From the NCBI RefSeq assembly GCF_000027125.1, contig NC_017626.1: a DNA stretch of 64,000 nt; one strand, 5' to 3'. Source of the DNA: Escherichia coli 042 (GTDB taxonomy: Bacteria; Pseudomonadota; Gammaproteobacteria; Enterobacterales; Enterobacteriaceae). The notes beneath the pieces were generated by a model, which was given only the letters and a program-made list of their open reading frames with translations, was not told the DNA's origin and did not search any database. Position numbers and translations under genes: made by a program. Of the stretch, positions 4,672 to 64,000 are shown piece after piece; within the stretch, counting starts at the first letter, position 1, and every line of letters begins with the position of its first letter.

Positions 4672-5502
4672 GACTTATCCTAATGCGATAACAACTTTGT
4701 ATAAGCTGATTGTACAGGAACTGGAGAGTTTCACCAGTGGCGGCTTTTGGACATCATTGGGGTGGCGTAGCGGTTTTTTTTTTATTTTTTTCGTTAAAAT
4801 ACATATTGTTAATTGTTTTTTATTGCGGAGGGGAACTGTCTATATCTTCTCATGCATCGGGATTTTTAACAGGCCTGAGCTGGCATGTTCTACCGTTTCA
4901 CACAGAAAGGAACAGTTAGTTTCAAACGGATACTTATCAATCAGTGGTGTGAGAAATGCTAAGAGTGGGAAACGCACTTAATTTTATGATTTCTTAGTGA
5001 CCAGTTTTTAACCATGAGCTAATCTTAAAATCTGATTTTTATCAATGAGTTAATGTTGATGTACTATGCGGCAATGAATGAAGTGTATTGCCATTCCGAA
5101 TTTTTGCTCATTTTTTAGCCATTTCCATACTTTTTTGCGTGAATATTTTATGAACAATGTTCCTTTCATAACTTATCTGTCTCAAATGATACGTTTGGAG
5201 TTTACAATTACTAAATATTTAATGTAAGTGGGAACAGCTATTTTTTGTTCATATTAGCTCCCAGCAGCAAAAGATGATGTAATTCATCCGGTGCAGAGAT
5301 AATATAGGAATGGATAATCTGGAGAGCGACTCTGCAGGCTGATATTGCGGTTTTGCGGCAAGTTTTTGGCATCCGCTTCTACGCCAAATACCTGAAGTAG
5401 GAATGGATGCGTTAGCAGCATACATCCGGATCTGCGCGGGGAATAGCCGGAAACGGCTATCCCTACCACAATAGCTAACTTTGTAATAGTGCCCTTTTAG
5501 GC

Positions 5503-51920: not shown

Positions 51921-53122
51921 TGCCGGTTGCTTCCGGAAGGTGTGACAAAATACGGAAATGATGATGCTCCCGGCCCTGCATGCTCACCTGCAGAGCGTGT
52001 TCGTCGTCATCATACTGAGCCATGACGGGCGTCTTAAGGGCATCCTGTCATTGCTGAGCAGGCAACACCACCAGAGGAGCCACGGACAGGGATGTTCTTT
52101 ACAGCCCGATACACGCCAGGTTCTCAGCAGACTGAATGTGCAGGTGCGGTTATTCACCAGAAATGGCATGCTGCGGTACATACCCATCCTGGTGACAATA
52201 TGTACGTGGCGACAGCGATCCCGGCACTGTGGAAGAGACTCACTCAGCCTGCAGGATATTCTTTCCGGCATCCGGGAATGTCCGCCTGAATGCAAACAGG
52301 ATGATATTTGAATCCGTAATACTGTTCTTTCATCATAAATAATTTATGCAGATACAGTTAACCGTTACAGTAGCCGGTTTGTTTTACCGGGAAATAATAT
52401 CCGTCAGACTGATGCCGGAACATATCTGAAACACGTTATGATGTTTTGTTATCAGAAATGTTGTATATTCTTATCCGTGGCGACAGTTTAATGCCCTCTG
52501 GTATCACCTTGGATAATGCATATCCTGCGATGATTCGTTATATTTACGGGACACGCCTCTTTTCATTGTGCTCCTTTTCAGACTTCATTTTCCGTAAGTG
52601 TTCCCCGGCATAAAGGAGGTACCTTTCTGGCGTTTATAACTCTCTTTATCGGTGACGCCGGTAATACAGGGAATACCACACCGACAAACGAGGTATTAAC
52701 AGACGATATTTCAGTGTCCATAATTTTTCTGTCCGGTTAAATAACGTCAGTCTGCTGCCCTCTGACTGTAATCATCAAAGCCGGAATGCATACCGGGTTA
52801 CAACGTAAAAAAAGTGATGCTGGCCCCCGGTGCAGCTGGCGGGCGAAACATGTTTACCTTTCAATACCCCCTGTCTGCAGTCTCCACTCTTCCATCCTCT
52901 TAAGCTACGTCGGCCACATGAGTGCACTTCCATGATAACAGGTATTCCTGTCAGCATAACGAAGCTGGTTACCTTCCCTTCCTCCTGCATTTCCTGTCAG
53001 AATGACTGTACAGCGCGCAGATTGCCTTTTTATTGACCACCTTAATATACCATTATAAACTTCTTTTTATCATGTTATTATCACCTTATTATGTTTAATT
53101 TTTAAGCAGCCGGAGAAAGGGG

Positions 53123-54001
53123 ATGGTTCAGAAAATTTTGTCGGATAAGGTTATGAATGAAAGAACAAATGCGTATTACTCTTATTATCTTGGAGGGCGT
53201 AATATCTCCGTACTGCCCCTTAATGTTTATGATCCCCCGGAACGTTTTATCGCTTACATAAAAAAAAACAGAGAAAATCTGAACATCACACTTTCAGATT
53301 TTGAACTTGAACAAATAATTTCTGGTATGCGTCTGAAGGCCCTGGCCTTCCTGGTCCCCCTGGAAAAAATATCCTGGATCGCGGGCAGTGAACGCGCATG
53401 CTTATTTTCCTGGTATCTGTTGATGCAGTTTATCCAGAATAACAGGGCAAAAATAAGCGCAGACTTGCTTCAAAAGAATAAACTGTATCTTAAAGAAGAG
53501 TATCTGGAAGGGAATGCCTTCCCGTCGGACTCATCGACACAGTTCAGACAAATACTCAGAGTTCTCGATATTCTTTCTGATAAGAATTTGCGGGATGAGT
53601 GGATAATCCAGACCAAAGACAGATGGATGCGGGCATTTAAATCAAAGAGTCCTTTCAGTTACCTCCTCCCGGAGAACGAACATGAATGCATATGGACATG
53701 GAATTATTTGAAGGGAAAAAATATTGCACTGGAAAAACTGGCCAGTTTTCCTGGTTCTGCTGATATTTACCACGCAATTCACCTTTCATTTGACATATGG
53801 GTTACCTGTCCACTCACCTCACCTGACGATATAAAAAATTTCAGAAACAGTTTCAATAAGGCCAAGGCGCAGCGCAAGTACAAAAAATGCAGGAAGATAA
53901 AGTCAATGTACAGTTTTTTCTTGACGCAGAAACCAGGGCGCAGCTCAAAGAATTATCGAGGGTCAGAAGACTCAGTACCGGCGAAATGCTGCATGACCTG
54001 A
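53123..54001 (+). CDS. Hypothetical protein (292 aa), AT-rich island cargo
   Basis: Supplied ORF; contains A9 homopolymer at ~53255-53263; an alternative frame over the last ~150 bp encodes MQEDKVNVQFFLDAETRAQLKELSRVRRLSTGEMLHDLIVEEYKRYRHSR*. Confidence 0.4.
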   Translation: MVQKILSDKVMNERTNAYYSYYLGGRNISVLPLNVYDPPERFIAYIKKNRENLNITLSDFELEQIISGMRLKALAFLVPLEKISWIAGSERACLFSWYLLMQFIQNNRAKISADLLQKNKLYLKEEYLEGNAFPSDSSTQFRQILRVLDILSDKNLRDEWIIQTKDRWMRAFKSKSPFSYLLPENEHECIWTWNYLKGKNIALEKLASFPGSADIYHAIHLSFDIWVTCPLTSPDDIKNFRNSFNKAKAQRKYKKCRKIKSMYSFFLTQKPGRSSKNYRGSEDSVPAKCCMT

Positions 54002-54065
54002 TTGTTGAAGAGTATAAAAGGTACCGACATTCCAGATAATTTCAGACATATATTATCTCTGTGAG

Positions 54066-54108
54066 TCCCCCGCCACCTTTCCGGTGTGCGGGGGTTTTGT
54101 CTTTTTTC
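54066..54108 (+). terminator. Rho-independent terminator
   Basis: GC stem cccccgc ... gcggggg with short loop, followed by ttttgtctttttt. Confidence 0.5.
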
Positions 54109-54123
54109 ACCGGGAATACATGT

Positions 54124-54996
54124 ATGAATCCGTCTGATGCCATTGAGGCAATTGAAAAACCGCTCTCCTCCCTGCCTTACTCACTTTCCCGTCACATCCA
54201 GGAACATCTGCGCAAACTCACCAGTCACGAACCCGTGATTGGCATTATGGGTAAAAGCGGGGCCGGTAAATCCTCACTCTGTAATGCACTGTTTCAGGGG
54301 GAGGTCACCCCGGTCAGTGATGTTCACGCCGGCACCCGGGAAGTGCGGCGCTTCCGTCTGAGTGGCCACGGTCACAGCATGATTATCACTGACCTGCCCG
54401 GGGTGGGCGAGAGCCGGGACAGGGATGCAGAGTATGAAGCCCTGTACCGTGACATTCTGCCTGAACTTGACCTGGTACTGTGGCTGATTAAAGCCGATGA
54501 CCGTGCCCTGTCTGTGGATGAGTATTTCTGGCGACACATACTGCACCGGGGACATCAGCAGGTGCTGTTTGTGGTGACGCAGGCCGACAAAACGGAGCCC
54601 TGCCATGAATGGGATATGGCCGGCATTCAGCCTTCTCCCGCACAGGCACAGAACATTCGTGAGAAAACAGATGCGGTATTCCGGCTGTTCCGGCCCGTAC
54701 ATCCGGTTGTGGCCGTATCGGCCTGCACCGGCTGGGAACTGGATACGCTGGTCAGTGCGCTCATGACAGCGCTTCCCGACCATGCCGCCAGTCCCCTGAT
54801 GACCCGCCTGCAGGACGAGCTGCGCACGGAATCTGTCCGGTCTCAGGCCCGTGAACAGTTTACCGGTGCGGTGGACCGGATATTTGACACGGCGGAGAGC
54901 GTCTGTATTGCCTCTGTTGCACGCACGGTTCTGCGTGCCGTCCGTGACTCGGTGGTCTCTGTTGCCCGCGCTGTATGGAACTGGATTTTCTTCTGA
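54124..54996 (+). CDS. yeeP: YeeP/YfjP/YkfA-family GTPase
   Basis: MNPSDAIEAIEK...; G1 motif GIMGKSGAGKSS, ITDLPG; start at ATG 54124. Confidence 0.8.
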   Translation: MNPSDAIEAIEKPLSSLPYSLSRHIQEHLRKLTSHEPVIGIMGKSGAGKSSLCNALFQGEVTPVSDVHAGTREVRRFRLSGHGHSMIITDLPGVGESRDRDAEYEALYRDILPELDLVLWLIKADDRALSVDEYFWRHILHRGHQQVLFVVTQADKTEPCHEWDMAGIQPSPAQAQNIREKTDAVFRLFRPVHPVVAVSACTGWELDTLVSALMTALPDHAASPLMTRLQDELRTESVRSQAREQFTGAVDRIFDTAESVCIASVARTVLRAVRDSVVSVARAVWNWIFF

Positions 54997-55104
54997 ACAG
55001 TCTGCCAGGGGAAATGCCTGATTACATTGCGTTAACCAACTGAAAACATGACACAAACACCTCATGCTCCTCCTGTTTCTCTTGCGTGACCGCCTTGCAA
55101 TCAA

Positions 55105-55160
55105 TAGAATAAAACGATCGATAAAACAGGTATCGATCGTTACTATCGATCGTTTATAGT
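55105..55160 (+). promoter_or_regulatory. Antigen 43 phase-variation switch (three Dam GATC sites, OxyR site)
   Basis: GATC at 55116-55119, 55135-55138 and 55148-55151, embedded in repeated cgatcg(a/t)t units, ~220 bp upstream of flu start. Confidence 0.65.
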
Positions 55161-55368
55161 GGTTAATGGTCTGCGAAAAGGCAGCTGAATCTCTTCATCA
55201 TGCAGAACGGAATTGCACACAACGGACTGATACTTCTCTGGCGGATGAGAGAGGGGAAGCATTTATGCCCGGGAAAAACCACTTTATCTGACCATGCTGT
55301 TTTGTACCTGCCGGTATCCACATTTGTGGGTACCGGCTTTTTTATTCACCCTCTGTAAGGAAAAGCTG

Positions 55369-58215
55369 ATGAAACGACATCTGAACACCAGCTACAGGCT
55401 GGTATGGAATCACATTACGGGCACCCTGGTGGTGGCTTCCGAACTGGCGCGCTCACGGGGAAAACGCACCGGTGTGGCGGTTGCGCTGTCTCTTGCTGCT
55501 GTCACGTCAGTCCCGGTACTGGCTGCTGACACGGTCGTACAGGCGGGAGAAACCGTGAGCGGCGGAACACTGACAAATCATGACAACCAGATTGTCTTCG
55601 GTACGGCCAACGGAATGACCATCAGTACCGGTCTGGAGTATGGGCCGGATAACGAGGCCAATACCGGCGGACAATGGATACAAAATGGCGGTATCGCCAA
55701 CAACACTACTGTCACCGGTGGTGGTCTTCAGAGAGTGAATGCCGGAGGAAGCGTTTCAGACACGGTTATCAGTGCCGGAGGCGGACAGAGCCTTCAGGGG
55801 CAGGCAGTGAACACCACTCTGAACGGCGGTGAGCAGTGGGTACATGAAGGCGGGATTGCAACGGGTACCGTCATTAATGAGAAGGGCTGGCAGGCCGTCA
55901 AATCCGGCGCAATGGCAACCGACACGGTTGTGAATACCGGCGCGGAAGGGGGACCGGATGCAGAAAATGGTGATACCGGGCAGTTTGTTCGCGGAAATGC
56001 CGTACGTACCACTATCAATGAAAATGGTCGTCAGATTGTGGCTGCTGAAGGAACAGCAAATACCACTGTGGTTTATGCCGGCGGCGACCAGACGGTACAC
56101 GGGCATGCGCTGGATACCACACTGAATGGCGGTTACCAGTATGTGCACAACGGAGGCACAGCCTCTGACACGGTTGTAAACAGTGACGGCTGGCAGATTG
56201 TCAAGGAAGGTGGTCTGGCGGATTTCACCACCGTTAACCAGAAAGGCAAACTGCAGGTGAACGCCGGTGGTACAGCCACGAATGTCACCCTGAAGCAGGG
56301 AGGCGCACTGGTCACCAGTACGGCGGCAACCGTCACCGGCAGCAACCGTCTGGGCAATTTCACTGTGGAAAACGGTAATGCTGACGGTGTTGTTCTGGAG
56401 TCCGGTGGTCGCCTGGATGTACTGGAGGGCCATTCAGCCTGGAAAACACTGGTGGATGACGGCGGAACCCTGGCAGTGTCTGCCGGTGGTAAGGCAACAG
56501 ATGTCACCATGACATCCGGTAGTGCCCTGATTGCAGACAGTGGTGCCACTGTTGAGGGGACCAATGCCAGCGGTAAGTTCAGTATTGATGGCACATCCGG
56601 TCAGGCCAGCGGACTGCTGCTGGAAAATGGCGGCAGCTTTACGGTTAATGCCGGAGGACTGGCCAGCAACACCACTGTCGGACATCGTGGAACACTGACG
56701 CTGGCTGCCGGGGGAAGTCTGAGTGGCAGAACACAGCTCAGTAAAGGTGCCAGCATGGTACTGAATGGCGATGTGGTCAGTACCGGCGATATTGTTAACG
56801 CAGGGGAGATTCGCTTTGATAATCAGACGACACCGGATGCCGCGCTGAGCCGTGCTGTTGCAAAAGGCGACTCCCCGGTAACGTTCCATAAACTGACCAC
56901 CAGTAACCTCACCGGTCAGGGTGGCACCATCAATATGCGTGTTCGCCTTGATGGCAGCAATACCTCTGACCAGCTGGTGATTAATGGTGGTCAGGCAACC
57001 GGCAAAACCTGGCTTGCGTTTACAAATGTCGGAAACAGTAACCTCGGGGTGGCAACCTCCGGACAGGGTATCCGGGTTGTGGATGCACAGAATGGCGCCA
57101 CCACAGAAGAAGGTGCGTTTGCCCTGAGTCGCCCGCTTCAGGCCGGCGCCTTTAACTACACCCTGAACCGTGACAGCGATGAAGACTGGTACCTGCGCAG
57201 TGAAAATGCTTATCGTGCTGAAGTCCCCCTGTATACATCCATGCTGACACAGGCAATGGACTATGACCGGATTCTGGCAGGCTCCCGCAGCCATCAGACC
57301 GGTGTAAACGGTGAAAATAACAGCGTCCGTCTCAGCATTCAGGGCGGTCATCTCGGTCACGATAACAACGGCGGTATTGCCCGTGGAGCCACGCCGGAAA
57401 GCAGCGGCAGCTATGGCTTCGTCCGTCTGGAGGGTGACCTGCTCAGAACAGAGGTTGCCGGTATGTCTCTGACGACAGGGGTGCATGGTGCCGCAGGCCA
57501 TTCTTCCGTTGATGTTAAGGATGATGACGGTTCCCGCGCCGGCACGGTCCGGGATGATGCCGGCAGCCTGGGCGGATACCTGAATCTGACACACACGTCC
57601 TCCGGCCTGTGGGCTGACATTGTGGCACAGGGAACCCGCCACAGCATGAAAGCGTCATCGGACAATAACGACTTCCGCGCCCGCGGCTGGGGCTGGCTGG
57701 GCTCACTGGAAACCGGTCTGCCCTTCAGTATCACTGACAACCTGATGCTGGAGCCACAACTGCAGTATACCTGGCAGGGACTTTCCCTGGATGACGGCCA
57801 GGATAACGCCGGTTATGTGAAGTTCGGGCATGGCAGTGCACAACATGTGCGTGCCGGTTTCCGTCTGGGCAGCCACAACGATATGAGCTTTGGTGAAGGC
57901 ACCTCATCCCGTGACACCCTGCGCGACAGTGCAAAACACCGTGTGCGTGAACTGCCGGTGAACTGGTGGGTACAGCCTTCTGTTATCCGCACCTTCAGTT
58001 CCCGGGGTGACATGAGCATGGGGACAGCCGCCGCCGGCAGTAACATGACGTTCTCACCGTCCCGGAATGGCACGTCACTGGACCTGCAGGCCGGACTGGA
58101 AGCCCGTGTCCGGGAAAATATCACCCTGGGCGTTCAGGCCGGTTATGCCCACAGTGTCAGCGGCAGCAGCGCTGAAGGTTATAACGGTCAGGCCACGCTG
58201 AATGTGACTTTCTGA
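55369..58215 (+). CDS. flu: Antigen 43 autotransporter adhesin (948 aa)
   Basis: [33 protein letters not shown]... signal/extended leader, beta-helical passenger repeats, C-terminal beta-barrel ending ...GQATLNVTF. Confidence 0.9.
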
Positions 58216-58235
58216 TAATCAGGTCACTCTCCTTC

Positions 58236-58268
58236 AGGCCCCGGTCATCATGACCGGGGCTTTTTACT
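58236..58268 (+). terminator. Rho-independent terminator after flu
   Basis: gccccggtcat ... atgaccggggc stem followed by ttttt. Confidence 0.6.
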
Positions 58269-58598
58269 TTCAGGGAGCAACAGATATGCCGGGTTGTACA
58301 TCACGTTTATTGCCCGAAGGCCCTTTCTCACGCGAACAGGCTGTTGCCGTCAAAACAGCTTACCGCAATGTGTTTACTGAAGATGACCAGGGAACATATT
58401 CCCGGCTGGTTATCCGTAATGCTGAAGGTCAGTTGCGCTGGTGATGCCGGAACACAGCTTAATACTCAGCTCGCCAGTTAAGGGCTTCTCAGACAATAAA
58501 CGTCATTCATTTCATCTGTCAGGCCGCGTCTTCTCCGGGAGACGCAGCTTTTTCATTTATTACACCAGTAAATCGTAACCACCGATAAGGAGCAAATT

Positions 58599-59417
58599 AT
58601 GCGACTAGCCAGTCGTTTTGGTTATGCGAACCAGATACGCCGTGACCGTCCGCTGACACACGAAGAACTGATGCACTATGTTCCCAGTATTTTCGGTGAA
58701 GACCGGCATACTTCCCGCAGTAAACGATATGCGTACATTCCCACCATCACCGTACTGGAAAGCCTGCAGCAGGAAGGTTTTCAGCCATTCTTCGCCTGCC
58801 AGACCCGCGTGCGCGACCCGGGCCGCCGGGGATACACAAAACACATGCTGCGTCTGCGGCGGGCCGGAGAGATAAACGGAGAACATGTCCCTGAAATTAT
58901 TCTGCTCAACTCTCATGACGGTACCTCCAGCTACCAGATGCTGCCGGGTTACTTCAGATTCGTCTGCCAGAATGGCTGCGTCTGCGGTCAGTCTCTGGGG
59001 GAAGTGCGTGTTCCACACCGGGGAAATGTGGTGGAGAAAGTTATCGAAGGGGCTTACGAAGTGGTGGGGGTTTTTGACCGGATTGAGGAAAAGCGTGATG
59101 CCATGCAGTCGCTGGTCCTGCCGCCACCGGCACGCCAGGCGCTGGCACAGGCGGCACTGACTTACCGTTATGGTGACGAACATCAGCCAGTCACCACCGC
59201 TGACATTCTGACGCCACGACGCCGGGAGGATTACGGTAAGGACCTGTGGAGTACTTATCAGACCATCCAGGAGAATATGCTGAAAGGCGGGATTTCCGGC
59301 CGCAGTGCAAAAGGAAAACGTATCCACACCCGTGCCATTCACAACATCGACACCGATATTAAGCTCAACCGCGCATTGTGGGTAATGGCAGAAACGCTGC
59401 TGGAGAGCCTGCGCTGA
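58599..59417 (+). CDS. DUF932-family protein (YafZ/YfjQ-like)
   Basis: 272 aa MRLASRFGYANQIRRDRPLTHEELMHYVPSIFGEDRH...; position between flu and antirestriction gene. Confidence 0.6.
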   Translation: MRLASRFGYANQIRRDRPLTHEELMHYVPSIFGEDRHTSRSKRYAYIPTITVLESLQQEGFQPFFACQTRVRDPGRRGYTKHMLRLRRAGEINGEHVPEIILLNSHDGTSSYQMLPGYFRFVCQNGCVCGQSLGEVRVPHRGNVVEKVIEGAYEVVGVFDRIEEKRDAMQSLVLPPPARQALAQAALTYRYGDEHQPVTTADILTPRRREDYGKDLWSTYQTIQENMLKGGISGRSAKGKRIHTRAIHNIDTDIKLNRALWVMAETLLESLR

Positions 59418-59758
59418 TGCAGCATGTCCCTGAAGGCGTGATTCAGGCACCAGAATCACCCGACGCCCCGGAGGCGCTGCCGGGGTGTCGTTCCATTTCT
59501 GATGATGACCTGTGCGCCTGGTGTACCCGTCTGCTTTACCGTCCCGGAGAAATCAGTCTGTGCAGACTGAGTATACAGGCAATGGCATCTGGCCATCCGT
59601 CTGTGACCGGAACGGTTACGCGTACGGCTGTCCGGAATTTCAGCCGAATATCATTCATCCCTGATATTACCGGGTCATCACGGTCAGTGATGAACGTGAT
59701 GTTGCCAGGTCCCGACCTTTACTCCCTCTCATTTATTCACATTACAAGGATTTCATAC

Positions 59759-60232
59759 ATGAAAACATTGTCTCAGAACACCACCTCTTCGGCCTGTGCA
59801 CCGGAGACTGACCTGCAACAACTGGTTGCCACCCTCGTCCCTGATGAACAGCGCATCAGCTTCTGGCCGCAGCACTTTGGCCTCATTCCACAGTGGGTGA
59901 CCCTGGAGCCCCGTGTCTTCGGCTGGATGGACCGTCTGTGCGAAGACTACTGCGGTGGTATCTGGAATCTGTACACCCTGAACAACGGCGGGGCATTTAT
60001 GGCACCCGAACCGGATGACGATGATGACGAAACATGGGTACTGTTCAATGCCATGAACGGTAACCGCGCTGAAATGAGTCCGGAAGCTGCCGGCATTGCT
60101 GCCTGTCTGATGACGTACAGTCATCATGCCTGTCGTACGGAGTGTTATGCCATGACGGTCCATTATTACCGGCTGCGGGATTACGCCCTGCAGCATCCGG
60201 AATGCAGCGCCATTATGCGCATCATCGACTGA
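59759..60232 (+). CDS. Antirestriction protein (KlcA/ArdB-like; YfjX/YafX-type)
   Basis: MKTLSQNTTSSACAPETDLQQLVATLVPDEQRISFWPQHFGLIPQWV...; start at ATG 59759 within the supplied longer ORF. Confidence 0.7.
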   Translation: MKTLSQNTTSSACAPETDLQQLVATLVPDEQRISFWPQHFGLIPQWVTLEPRVFGWMDRLCEDYCGGIWNLYTLNNGGAFMAPEPDDDDDETWVLFNAMNGNRAEMSPEAAGIAACLMTYSHHACRTECYAMTVHYYRLRDYALQHPECSAIMRIID

Positions 60233-60724
60233 ATGGAGAGAAGTACAATGCAACAGCTTTCCTTTCTGCCCGGAGAGATGACGCCCGGCGAGCGCAGCCT
60301 CATTCAACGGGCCCTGAAAACCCTGGACCGCCATCTTCATGAACCCGGCGTGGCCTTCACCTCCACCCGTGCGGCACGAGAATGGCTGATTCTGAACATG
60401 GCGGGACTGGAGCGTGAAGAGTTCCGGGTGCTGTATCTGAACAACCAGAATCAGCTGATTGCCGGTGAAACCCTCTTCACCGGCACCATCAACCGCACGG
60501 AAGTCCATCCCCGTGAAGTGATTAAACGCGCCCTGTATCACAATGCCGCTGCTGTGGTGCTGGCACACAATCACCCGTCCGGTGAAGTCACACCCAGCAA
60601 GGCAGACCGCCTTATCACGGAACGTCTGGTACAGGCACTGGGCCTGGTGGATATCCGGGTGCCGGACCATCTGATAGTCGGTGGCAGCCAGGTTTTCTCC
60701 TTTGCCGAACATGGTCTGCTTTAA
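60233..60724 (+). CDS. yeeS: RadC-like JAB-domain protein
   Basis: ...HNHPSGEVTPSKADRLITERL JAMM-like motif; start may be the internal ATG at 60248. Confidence 0.8.
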   Translation: MERSTMQQLSFLPGEMTPGERSLIQRALKTLDRHLHEPGVAFTSTRAAREWLILNMAGLEREEFRVLYLNNQNQLIAGETLFTGTINRTEVHPREVIKRALYHNAAAVVLAHNHPSGEVTPSKADRLITERLVQALGLVDIRVPDHLIVGGSQVFSFAEHGLL

Positions 60725-60786
60725 CCCGTCACAACCACATCACACCTGTTTTCACTTTTATCTTCTGTCTTCAGAGGTATCCCACC

Positions 60787-61008
60787 ATGAAAATCATCAC
60801 CCGTGGCGAAGCCATGCATATTCACCGTCAGCATCCGGCATCCCGTCTTTTTCCGTTCTGTACCGGCAAATACCGCTGGCACGGCAGTGCTGAAGCGTAT
60901 ACCGGTCGTGAAGTGCAGGATATTCCCGGTGTGCTGGCCGTGTTTGCAGAACGCCGTAAGGACAGTTTTGGTCCGTATGTCCGGCTGATGAGCGTCACCC
61001 TGAACTGA
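60787..61008 (+). CDS. yeeT: DUF987 protein YeeT-like
   Basis: 73 aa MKIITRGEAMHIHRQHPASRLFPFCTGKYRWHGSAEAYTGREVQDIPGVLAVFAERRKDSFGPYVRLMSVTLN. Confidence 0.85.
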   Translation: MKIITRGEAMHIHRQHPASRLFPFCTGKYRWHGSAEAYTGREVQDIPGVLAVFAERRKDSFGPYVRLMSVTLN

Positions 61009-61170
61009 TGTTCCGTCACCCGGAAAACGAGTACGACTGGCTGAGCTCAGACGCCGCTGTGGATGAGGTCCTGCTCATCAACGAATACACCTTTACCGAA
61101 GCCGGTCTGCGCGCCGGCTGACCCGTCATCGTTAAACTATCATTCACCGATTTTCTGTGAGGATTTTATC

Positions 61171-61539
61171 GTGTCAGACACACTTTCCGGGACAACGCAT
61201 CCCGATGACAATGACGACCATCCCTGGTGGGGACTACCCTGCACAGTGACGCCCTGTTTCGGCGCCCGTCTGGTGCAGGAGGGTAACCGGTTGCATTACC
61301 TTGCCGACCGTGCCGGTATCAGAGGCCGGTTCAGAGATGCGGATGCGTACCCTCTGGACCAGGCCTTTCCGCTGCTGATGAAACAACTGGAATTAATGCT
61401 CACCAGTGGTGAACTGAATCCCCGCCATCAGCATACCGTGACACTGTATGCGAAGGGGCTGACCTGTGAAGCCGACACCCTCGGCTCCTGTGGTTACGTT
61501 TATCTGGCTGTTTATCCGACACCTGAAACGAAAAAGTAA
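61171..61539 (+). CDS. cbeA: Type IV antitoxin CbeA (YeeU-like)
   Basis: GTG start at 61171 after [55 protein letters not shown]... Confidence 0.85.
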
Positions 61540-61628
61540 ACCACCGGAATAACCTTCTGCTCCGGCCTGGTGTTTTCACCACGCCACTGTCCCATTTTTT
61601 ATCTCTGCATATCAGGAAAATCTTCAGT

Positions 61629-62003
61629 ATGAAAACATTACCCGACACGCATGTACGGGAGGTATCGTGCTGCCCGTCTCCCGTCACCATCTGGCAGACA
61701 CAGCTCACCCGACTGCTGGACCAGCACTACGGCCTTACGCTGAATGACACACCGTTCGTGGATGAACGTGTGATTGAGCAGCATATTGAGGCAGGCATTT
61801 CACTGTGTGACGCGGTGAACTTTCTCGTTGAAAAATACGCGCTGGTACGTACCGACCAGTCGGGATTCAGCGCAGGAGCCTCGTCGCAGTTAATCAACAG
61901 CATTGATATTCTCCGGGCTCGCCGGGCAACAGGCCTGATGACCCGCCACAACTACAGAACGGTGAACAATATCACCCTGGGTAAGTATCCGGAGGCGAAA
62001 TGA
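61629..62003 (+). CDS. cbtA: Toxin CbtA (YeeV-like)
   Basis: 124 aa ...[49 protein letters not shown]...; 4-bp overlap with downstream yeeW-like gene. Confidence 0.85.
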
Positions 62004-62131
62004 TGAAACTGGCCCTGACACTGGAAGCCGACAGTGTTAACGTACAGGCACTGAATATGGGGCGAATTGTCGTTGACATTGATGGTGTTAATCTCGCTGA
62101 ACTGATTAACATGGTCTGCGATAACGGCTAC
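62000..62131 (+). pseudogene. yeeW: yeeW-like gene, N-terminal part (split by IS2)
   Basis: [44 protein letters not shown] then IS2; rejoins in-frame with 63463-63827. Confidence 0.7.
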
Positions 62132-62142
62132 TGGATTTGCCC

Positions 62143-63048
62143 CTATATTTCCAGACACCTGTTATCACTTAACCCATTACTGGCTTGCTGCCGTAGATAT
62201 TCCCGTGGCGAGCGATAACCCAGTGCACTATGCGGATGCCATTCGTTATAATGCTCGAACGCCTCTGCAAGGTTCTTTGCTGCCGTTAACCCGTCTGGTT
62301 TGGGCATGACACTGATGTAGTCACGCTTTATCGTTTTCACGAAGCTCTCTGCTATGCCGTTACTCTCCGGACTCCGCACCGCCGTGTTCTTCGGTTCAGG
62401 CCCCAACATCCGGGCAAACTGCCGTGTTTCATTAGCCCGGTAGCATGAACCATTATCCGTCAGCCACTCTACTGGAGACGCCGGAAGCTCGTTGCCGAAA
62501 CGGCGTTCCACCGCTCCCAGCATGACGTCCTGTACTGTTTCACTGTTGAAGCCGCCCGTAGTGACCGCCCAGTGCAGTGCCTCACGGTCACAGCAGTCCA
62601 GCGCGAACGTGACTCGCAGTTTTTCTCCGTTATCACAGCGGAACTCGAACCCGTCAGAGCACCATCGCTGATTACTTTCTTTCACAGCCACTCTGCCGGT
62701 ATGTGCCCGTTTCGATGGCGGTACAGCGGGTTTTCGCTCAAGCAACAGCGCATTCTGGCGCATGATCCGGTAAATACGTTTGGCATTGATCGCAGGCATA
62801 CCATCAAGTTCGGCCTGTCTACGAAGCAGCGCCCATACCCGACGATAACCATATGTGGGCAGCTCTCCGATAACATGGTGTATACGGAGAAGCACATCCG
62901 TATCATCTGAGTGACGGCTGCGGCGACCATCTTTCCAGTCATCGGTTCGTCTGAGAATGACGTGCAACTGCGCACGCGACACCCGGAGACAACGGCTGAC
63001 TAAGCTTACTCCCCATCCCCGGGCAATAAGGGCGCGTGCGCTATCCAC
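62143..63048 (-). CDS. insD: IS2 transposase OrfB (InsD, 301 aa)
   Basis: Full-length DDE transposase ending ...RCLEI. Confidence 0.9.
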
Positions 63049-63371
63049 TTTTTTGCACGCCCATATTCAACGGCTTCTTTAAGGAGTTCATTTTCCATCG
63101 TTTTTTTGCCGAGCAGGCGCTGGAGTTCTTTAATCTGCTTCATGGCGGCAGCAAGTTCAGAGGCAGGAACGACCTGTTCTCCTGCGGCCACAGCAGTAAG
63201 ACTTCCCTCCTGGTATTGCTTGCGCCAGAGAAATAACTGGCTGGCTGCCACACCGTGTTGCCGGGCAACAAGGGAGACTGTCATTCCCGGTTCAAAACTC
63301 TGCTGAACAATAGCGATCTTTTCCTGTGTAGTACGCCGTCTGCGTTTCTCCGGTCCTAAGACATCAATCAT
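63006..63371 (-). CDS. insC: IS2 transposase OrfA (InsC)
   Basis: [18 protein letters not shown]... Confidence 0.9.
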
Positions 63372-63462
63372 CTGCTCTCCAATGACTAGTCTAAAAACTA
63401 GTATTAAGACTATCACTTAAATAAGTGATATTGGTTGTTTGGAGATTCAGGGGGCCAGTCTA

Positions 63463-63827
63463 GCTACTCCCTTCGTGTTGTTGATGAATCTGACCGGACC
63501 TCAGCAGACTGCACGCCACCATTTGTTGCCCTTACCGGCATACGCTGCAGTACCGCACATATCACGGAAACGGACAACGCCTGGCTGTACTCGCTGTCAC
63601 ACCAGACCAGTGACTTCGGTGAATCAGAATGGATTCATTTTACCGGTACCGGTTATCTGTTACGTACCGATGCGTGGTCATACCCGGTTCTGCGGCTTAA
63701 GCGCCTGGGGCTGTCAAAAACGTTCCGTCGTCTGGTCGTCACACTCATCCGGCGTTATGGTGTCAGTCTCATTCATCTGGATGCCAGTGCCGGATATCTG
63801 CCGGGTTTACCCACTTTCGACTGGTAA
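63463..63827 (+). pseudogene. yeeW: yeeW-like gene, C-terminal part (split by IS2)
   Basis: SLRVVDESDRTSADCTPPFVALTGIR... continues the frame of 62000-62131 after removal of IS2 and one GCTAC copy. Confidence 0.65.
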
Positions 63828-63843
63828 TCCGGAAATTCACAAC

Positions 63844-64000
63844 ATGAAATCATTAACCACGGAAACAGCGCTGGATATTCTGATTACGTGGCTGCAGGAC
63901 AATATCGACTGCGAATCGGGAATTATCTTCGACAACGATGAGGATAAAACAGGTTCGGCAGCACTGTTGCGCTGTATCGAACAGGCCAGGGAGGGTATCC
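63844..64000 (+). CDS. Hypothetical protein, 5' part (continues past window end)
   Basis: ATG at 63844; MKSLTTETALDILITWLQDNIDCESGIIFDNDEDKTGSAALLRCIEQAREG... Confidence 0.4.
   Translation, partial: MKSLTTETALDILITWLQDNIDCESGIIFDNDEDKTGSAALLRCIEQAREGI

Follow-up and report, generated by a model that had tools for sequence, protein, structure and literature searches.

What is the run of small genes at positions 58599 to 62003 of a 64,000-nucleotide stretch of Escherichia coli 042 DNA (contig NC_017626.1; hereafter the window), and is it still an intact unit? A first-pass annotation had described it as a conserved accessory block of CP4 type, encoding in order DUF932, antirestriction, RadC-like, YeeT, CbeA, and CbtA proteins, all co-directional, separated by short gaps and ending in cbeA/cbtA. 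Our analysis indicates that the region is very probably a conserved co-directional accessory module of P4-like (CP4-type) islands in E. coli, where it is found close to one of the island ends. On the evidence of protein similarity and gene order, conjugative plasmids of the IncHI2 type and further members of the Enterobacterales carry the same module. While its six core genes are intact, three small flanking genes are broken: a DUF905 gene by a 20-bp deletion, a cysteine-rich gene by the insertion of TA, and a DUF5983 gene by the insertion sequence (IS) IS2.

The open reading frame (ORF) list and a Pfam scan placed all six named genes on the plus strand, in the order and at the positions first proposed. 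The block opens with an intact DUF932 gene of the YfjQ/YafZ family (58599-59417, 272 aa; PF06067, E = 2.6e-52), followed by an ArdB-type antirestriction gene (59759-60232, 157 aa; PF03230, E = 8.4e-37), a RadC-like JAB-domain gene of the YeeS/YkfG/LfgB family (60248-60724, 158 aa; PF04002, E = 1.5e-44), and a DUF987 gene of the YeeT family (60787-61008, 73 aa; PF06174, E = 3.1e-40). It continues with an intact cbeA-like type IV antitoxin gene of the YeeU family, which has a GTG start as in K-12 (61171-61539, 122 aa; PF06154, E = 1.3e-53), and an intact cbtA-like type IV toxin gene of the YeeV family (61629-62003, 124 aa; PF06755, E = 4.1e-60). Start sites were taken from the Prokaryotic Genome Annotation Pipeline (PGAP) annotation of E. 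coli MARGA_4, a genome that is 99.9% identical here and to which PGAP assigns the same six products. All six Pfam matches lie far beyond chance level. The description of the gaps as short is only partly true, as they measure 341, 15, 62, 162, and 89 nt. Three long minus-strand ORFs (59753-60712, 58605-59459, and 61400-61708) had no Pfam match and were taken as shadow ORFs. An Rfam scan of positions 53000 to 64000 at E ≤ 1 found only IsrC (IS102 RNA), upstream of the antigen 43 (Ag43) gene, and nothing in the block, and none of the six core proteins matched a PADLOC defense-system model.

The toxin-antitoxin pair closes the core. In K-12, CbtA binds FtsZ and MreB and thereby blocks both division and elongation, while CbeA is a cytoskeleton bundling-enhancing antitoxin according to the K-12 annotation. 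CbeA is not known to require binding to the toxin for its action. In a working pair, the toxin would be expected to cause growth arrest with lemon-shaped cells and the antitoxin to rescue them. Neither gene of the pair is frameshifted in the window. When the four proteins were aligned with their K-12 counterparts YeeS, YeeT, CbeA, and CbtA, as the first-pass annotation had proposed, identities of 99.3%, 95.9%, 90.2%, and 84.7% were obtained, and in BLASTP the four alignments were full length and gapless, covering 122/122 aa for CbeA and 124/124 aa for CbtA. The CbtA_toxin domain is likewise complete, covering profile positions 1 to 112 of 112. CbeA matched the YeeU structures PDB 2INW and 2H28 with E values of about 1e-75, while no relative with a solved structure was found for CbtA. 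The antitoxin gene directly precedes the toxin gene and has the same orientation; the spacer between them, 89 nt here and 88-89 nt in the comparison with CP4-44, shares 94% identity with its K-12 counterpart. We considered this spacer as a structured RNA and rejected the idea, its fold being unremarkable (z = -1.34).

Two residues of the toxin, read in the translation, deserve attention. Phenylalanine 65, the FtsZ-binding determinant of CbtA (PMC5624674), is conserved. Position 15 is a cysteine, as in the paralogs YpjF and YkfI. The R15C substitution in K-12 CbtA abolishes MreB binding, yet YpjF and YkfI, which naturally carry C15, block elongation (PMC5624674). We therefore rejected the idea that C15 marks a natural MreB-binding-defective variant and draw no functional inference from this residue. 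Overall, the window carries an intact predicted type IV toxin-antitoxin pair, with a toxin that would be of the FtsZ/MreB-binding kind.

The region in front of cbeA differs in length from its K-12 counterpart. K-12 has 73 nt between DUF987 and cbeA; the window has 162 nt (61009-61170), about 92 of them extra. At the same place, E. coli O18:H1 has a gene for a 214-aa hypothetical protein without a Pfam match (locus L002, 4107-4751). An in-frame ATG at 61063 would lengthen CbeA by 36 aa; the homologs and the YeeU structures begin at the residue encoded by GTG 61171.

The antirestriction protein is well preserved too. ArdB is identical at 154 of 157 positions (98%) to PDB 2WJ9 and has the same 157-aa length. 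2WJ9 is the ArdB of E. coli CFT073, the product of ORF14 on PAI II, so that there, too, the gene has a pathogenicity-island location (PMC2836571). The three substitutions are D18G, L25I, and D62N (window residue, position, 2WJ9 residue). ArdB also matched the KlcA structure 2KMG (E = 2.6e-21) and shared 75% identity with K-12 YfjX (LfgA) and 67% with YafX. The gene has its own Shine-Dalgarno sequence, AAGGA, located 8 nt upstream of ATG 59759. Since CFT073 ArdB and its K-12 paralogs inhibit, in vivo, each of the four Type I restriction families (PMC2836571), the window ArdB is, by homology to its 98% identical CFT073 relative, a protein predicted to block Type I restriction in vivo.

The remaining core proteins are also full length. 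The RadC-like protein retains an intact JAMM motif, H-x-H-x7-S-x2-D (HNHPSGEVTPSKAD), as read from the translation, is 82% identical to YkfG and 78% to LfgB (YfjY) in addition to its close match to YeeS, and matched PDB 2QLC (E = 3e-25). Its CP4-57 paralog YfjY was renamed LfgB and reportedly acts as a protease on the antitoxin MqsA, which it degrades; it is encoded in the lfgABCDE operon, which corresponds to yfjX-yfjY-ypjJ-yfjZ-ypjF (PMC10846083). DUF932 aligned without gaps over 271 aa with K-12 YfjQ (74.5% identity) and YafZ (75.3%), and the alignment of DUF987 with YeeT covered 73/73 aa. No relative with a solved structure was found for either of these two proteins.

These features suggest how the module may serve its element. 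The block would sit inside a large leuX-type island. ArdB could protect the element from restriction upon entry and thus favor establishment in a new host, whereas CbtA/CbeA could act as an addiction or stress module that promotes persistence of the element. The RadC-like protease may be grouped with CbtA/CbeA in retention or stress response. Finally, the genes from ardB to cbtA might be co-transcribed from upstream of ardB, as reported for lfgABCDE of CP4-57.

Several observations weigh against this proposal. The inactivation of three neighboring small genes indicates that the module is under some decay. CFT073 ArdB was inactive on EcoKI in vitro (PMC2836571), and the role of RadC is disputed, a protease being proposed by some (PMC10846083) and nucleic-acid processing by others (PMC5512222). 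Furthermore, the window has no tRNA gene and no integrase homolog, and a consensus scan for sigma-70 promoters found nothing convincing for the genes from ardB to cbtA, the number of matches being at the level of the shuffled background (5 versus 4.3 expected). One might see the whole block as what is left of a dead mobile element, decaying and without function, whose intact ORFs have simply not been degraded so far. Indeed, inactivating lesions were found in three of nine small genes within the block and next to it, and the surrounding island is full of IS elements and pseudogenes. However, the six core ORFs are full length and have kept their catalytic and interaction residues, identical copies of the proteins occur on hundreds to thousands of contigs, and the K-12 paralogs are expressed and have phenotypes (PMC10846083, PMC5371832). 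We consequently regard a dead remnant as unlikely and retain the conserved accessory module.

The longest gap of the block, between DUF932 and ardB, was found to hold the trace of a further gene. The first-pass annotation had suspected an additional small gene in the ORF at 59378-59758. A real gene family does occupy this place, but the window copy is broken and there is no separate ORF: 59378-59758 is the stop-free upstream part of a longer ORF, 59378-60232, that is in frame with the antirestriction gene. From homolog alignments and the positions of the indels, we identified in 59417-59758, on the plus strand, a frameshifted copy of a conserved, unnamed gene for a Cys-rich protein of 80 to 87 aa. 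Its ATG at 59417 and the DUF932 stop share 1 nt (TGATG). After codon 52 the frame is lost through an inserted TA at 59572-59573, and an extra A at 59677 lies past the ancestral stop. Because the two insertions together add 3 nt, the shifted frame runs without a stop into the ArdB ATG.

In related loci the gene has 81 codons in E. coli O18:H1 (L002, 2500-2745), 84 in a Klebsiella plasmid (L004, 4935-5189), and 58 in E. coli VR50 (L003), and it was found at 5001-5264 of further loci (L010-L014). It occupies the same position, after DUF932 and before ardB, in Yersinia, Mixta, and Salmonella chromosomes, and its 1-nt overlap with DUF932 recurs in several Enterobacterales and on IncHI2 plasmids. 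We recovered 184 homologs of the protein, mostly 80 to 87 aa long and lacking a Pfam domain, from Escherichia, Enterobacter, Citrobacter, Klebsiella, Salmonella, Yersinia, and Mixta. Their conserved core reads GCRSISDDDLCAWC..LLYRPGE.SLC.LS...WPS.CD.DGYAQSCP, in which the Cys, Trp, and Pro columns are kept. Between E. coli O18:H1 and Klebsiella, differences in the core fall on codon positions 1, 2, and 3 in numbers of 14, 9, and 27, with 20 synonymous versus 14 non-synonymous codon changes. At the sequence level, the conservation of this small gene is thus of a protein-coding pattern. No match to the family was found in Pfam, NCBIfam, PHROGs, or PADLOC, and the family profile gave only chance-level matches to PDB sequences (E = 0.047 and 0.16). 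An AlphaFold2 model built on a 62-sequence alignment was too poor for a fold search (mean pLDDT, 55.8; pTM, 0.30). In some sources the family is mislabeled as "antirestriction protein."

We read the window copy as a pseudogene, since ArdB has a Shine-Dalgarno sequence to itself and PGAP calls no gene at this place in genomes at least 99% identical. One may instead take the stop-free ORF from 59417 to 60232 at face value, as a real 271-aa long isoform in which the first 52 Cys-rich residues are joined to ArdB through a frameshift-derived linker. Indeed, the compensating indels (+TA and +A, net 3 nt) leave about 62 shifted codons without a stop and in frame with ArdB. In the 042 locus CBG37629-CBG37633, where CbtA (CBG37633.1) is also exactly as in the window, the fused 271-aa ORF is annotated as a product (CBG37629.1), which was found on 98 contigs. 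The alleles of the window are thus in essence those already published and annotated for that locus. The frameshifted allele is, moreover, the commoner one in complete E. coli: among 2594 element-carrying records, 1550 matched the frameshifted test stretch at 99% or more and 788 the intact one. Against a long isoform stand the missing PGAP annotation just mentioned, the strong ribosome-binding signal and start of ArdB, whose crystallized active form is the 157-aa protein, and the origin of the linker in out-of-frame and formerly non-coding sequence. Other frameshift alleles yield 90-aa products that end before ardB, and chance alone would give an in-frame stop-free run of about 62 codons, which was noticed post hoc, about 2% of the time. 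We therefore consider the long isoform to be very unlikely.

The 341-nt stretch 59418-59758 could also be imagined as a non-coding structured element driving ardB, either a single-stranded DNA (ssDNA) promoter of the leading-region type or a regulatory RNA. Plasmid leading-region ssDNA promoters sit upstream of antirestriction genes, and this stretch lies directly upstream of such a gene. As ssDNA it folds with z scores of -4.45 (plus strand) and -3.72 (minus strand), and 0 of 100 shuffles were as stable. However, the homologous stretch of the Klebsiella IncHI2 plasmid folds no better than its shuffles (z = -1.59 and +0.53), the window stretch folds only weakly as RNA (z = -2.15), and Rfam offers nothing at E ≤ 1. 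Since the structure is not conserved on the plasmid and the conservation described above is of the coding type, we rejected this idea as extremely improbable. The ssDNA fold includes an 11-bp GC-rich hairpin at 59461-59490, and would be explained, if at all, by sequence composition or lineage-specific hairpins.

The Cys-rich gene was intact in five loci examined, from other genera and another E. coli lineage, where it has the 1-nt overlap with DUF932 and lies directly before ardB. The protein could conceivably partner DUF932 or ArdB in element establishment or anti-defense, with the frameshifted allele yielding a second, N-terminally extended ArdB isoform; we hold this combined proposal to be quite unlikely. 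The family is nonetheless one mildly useful by-product of the analysis and merits a family entry.

The block does not end in cbeA/cbtA, as had been proposed: an overlapping DUF5983 gene and then a DUF957 gene continue past cbtA. The start of the DUF5983 gene, which is yeeW-like, overlaps the cbtA stop (ATGA). Its 5' part lies at 62000-62131 on the plus strand (DUF5983_N, E = 5.6e-24) and is labeled "DUF5983 family protein, incomplete" by PGAP. The gene is then interrupted by a full-length, 1331-bp IS2 at 62132-63462, whose transposase genes are on the minus strand; it is 95.5% identical to K-12 IS2F over 1331/1331 bp without gaps and is labeled by PGAP "IS3 family transposase, programmed frameshift." The insertion is flanked by a 5-bp target duplication, GCTAC, at 62127-62131 and 63463-63467. 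The 3' part of DUF5983 follows at 63468-63827 on the plus strand, within ORF 63435-63827, and encodes the C-terminal domain (PF19419, E = 1.2e-21). Removing IS2 and one copy of the repeat in silico restored a 163-aa DUF5983 ORF that is collinear with the intact Klebsiella plasmid protein. The DUF957 gene (63844-64000, plus strand) is cut by the window end and was identified from its translation and from the PGAP annotation of the MARGA_4 locus (L001, 11845-12021).

On the other side, the ORF at 58250-58444 after flu had been proposed as an additional small gene. It does belong to a gene of the DUF905 family, but one that is a truncated pseudogene and whose start had been misplaced. The remnant, of the YkfF family, spans 58286-58444 on the plus strand and matches profile positions 2 to 46 of 70 (Pfam DUF905, E = 1.3e-14). 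Compared with the intact genes of E. coli O18:H1 (L002) and the Klebsiella plasmid (L004) and with K-12 ykfF, it has a 20-bp deletion directly after 58442, which shifts the frame and leads to a stop after 52 codons; PGAP labels the gene "frameshifted" in a 99.9% identical genome. ATG 58250 falls inside a terminator-like hairpin of flu (58236-58262), and the likely start is ATG 58286, the homologous one.

Further upstream of the block lie a YeeP/YkfA-like GTPase gene (54124-54996), the IsrC/IS102 RNA (55114-55350; 74.6 bits in Rfam versus a gathering score of 46), and the Ag43 gene (55369-58215). The GTPase gave weak PADLOC matches to LeoBC (E = 9.7e-9) and LeoA (E = 3.3e-5), both dynamin-like GTPase models. 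Upstream of it, a 292-aa ORF at 53123-54001 had no Pfam match and is a "hypothetical protein" for PGAP in a near-identical genome.

The wider setting was examined in MARGA_4, a genome collinear at 99.8% identity with the window's final 32 kb. In this genome, a tyrosine integrase gene adjoins a tRNA-Leu gene at the border of the island, about 50 kb from the block, and the island carries the fec operon together with many IS elements and pseudogenes. Beyond the point corresponding to the window end, gene fragments are followed by SNF2-related, DNA methyltransferase, and DEAD/DEAH helicase genes. After the helicase gene come fragments of a phosphorothioation-dependent restriction endonuclease gene, and this stretch (L001, 12931-18001) may be a defense cluster at the end of the island.

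The block itself is already known, being published, structurally characterized, or annotated in thousands of E. coli genomes. In a search with a 6-kb query, 5236 of 5426 complete E. coli genomes matched at least part of it, with a median of 6 places per genome, a figure that overstates the number of genomes with the block itself because the query contains the common IS2. The exact protein sequences are public on 73 contigs for CbtA, 996 for CbeA, and at least 1000 for ArdB. As a discovery the block thus matters little, and the value of the analysis lies mainly in annotation hygiene: cbtA and cbeA are intact, the block continues past cbtA into a DUF5983 gene split by IS2, and the long ORF preceding ardB is a small gene that has suffered a frameshift, neither an N-terminal extension nor a new gene.

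We finally compared the window with known islands. The P4-like gene order seen in CP4-57 and CP4-6, with a GTPase gene, then DUF932, then ArdB, RadC, DUF987, antitoxin, and toxin genes, is present in the window. The reading as a CP4-type accessory block holds at its core, but the window does not follow CP4-44 or CP4-57 to the letter, as the first-pass annotation had it do. In CP4-44, yeeS-yeeT-cbeA-cbtA-yeeW agree in order and strand with the RadC-like, DUF987, antitoxin, toxin, and DUF5983 genes, and yeeP-isrC-flu upstream mirror the GTPase, IsrC, and Ag43 genes. However, CP4-44 carries yeeR where the window has DUF905, DUF932, the small gene, and ArdB. The first 10 residues are missing from K-12 YeeS, whereas the N terminus of the window protein is longer and YkfG-like. 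The two CbtA proteins differ mainly in residues 6 to 28, including R15 in K-12 versus C15 in the window. K-12 yeeW is a short fragment (YeeW is 73% identical over 41 aa to the N-terminal part of the window DUF5983), while the window gene is complete apart from IS2.

The similarity among the K-12 loci has been described (PMC5371832). lfgABCDE of CP4-57 and yafX-ykfG-ykfH-yafW-ykfI of CP4-6 have the same five-gene order as the window (ArdB, RadC-like, DUF987, antitoxin, toxin), preceded on the same strand by genes for DUF932 (yfjQ, yafZ) and a GTPase, and their toxins, YpjF and YkfI, share C15 and F65 with the window toxin. Nevertheless, the proteins are only 62 to 82% identical to those of the window, and the antitoxin-toxin spacer is 20 nt versus 89 nt (PMC5371832). 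Eight annotated genes or pseudogenes separate yfjQ (DUF932) from yfjX (ArdB) in CP4-57, and several genes do so in CP4-6. In both islands the DUF905 gene (ypjI, ykfF) stands directly before ArdB, whereas in the window it stands before DUF932, and no Cys-rich gene is annotated between DUF932 and ArdB.

The contiguous order of the window recurs in E. coli O18:H1 and VR50. A Yersinia island retains the order from DUF932 through the small gene and ArdB to RadC but no more of it; an unnamed gene, DUF5983, and CbeA come next, and neither DUF987 nor CbtA was called. The chromosomal blocks of other genera have the module from the GTPase gene on, with DUF4942 after the block. The fullest agreement was found on the conjugative IncHI2 plasmid p17277A_477 of Klebsiella quasipneumoniae, in Mixta, and in Salmonella arizonae, where DUF932, the Cys-rich gene, ArdB, RadC, DUF987, CbeA, CbtA, DUF5983, and DUF957 are contiguous. 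In p17277A_477, DUF905 precedes DUF932 as in the window, and an extra 72-aa gene lies between ArdB and RadC. In these plasmid and other-genus blocks all small genes are intact, and the Cys-rich protein is about 53 to 64% identical.

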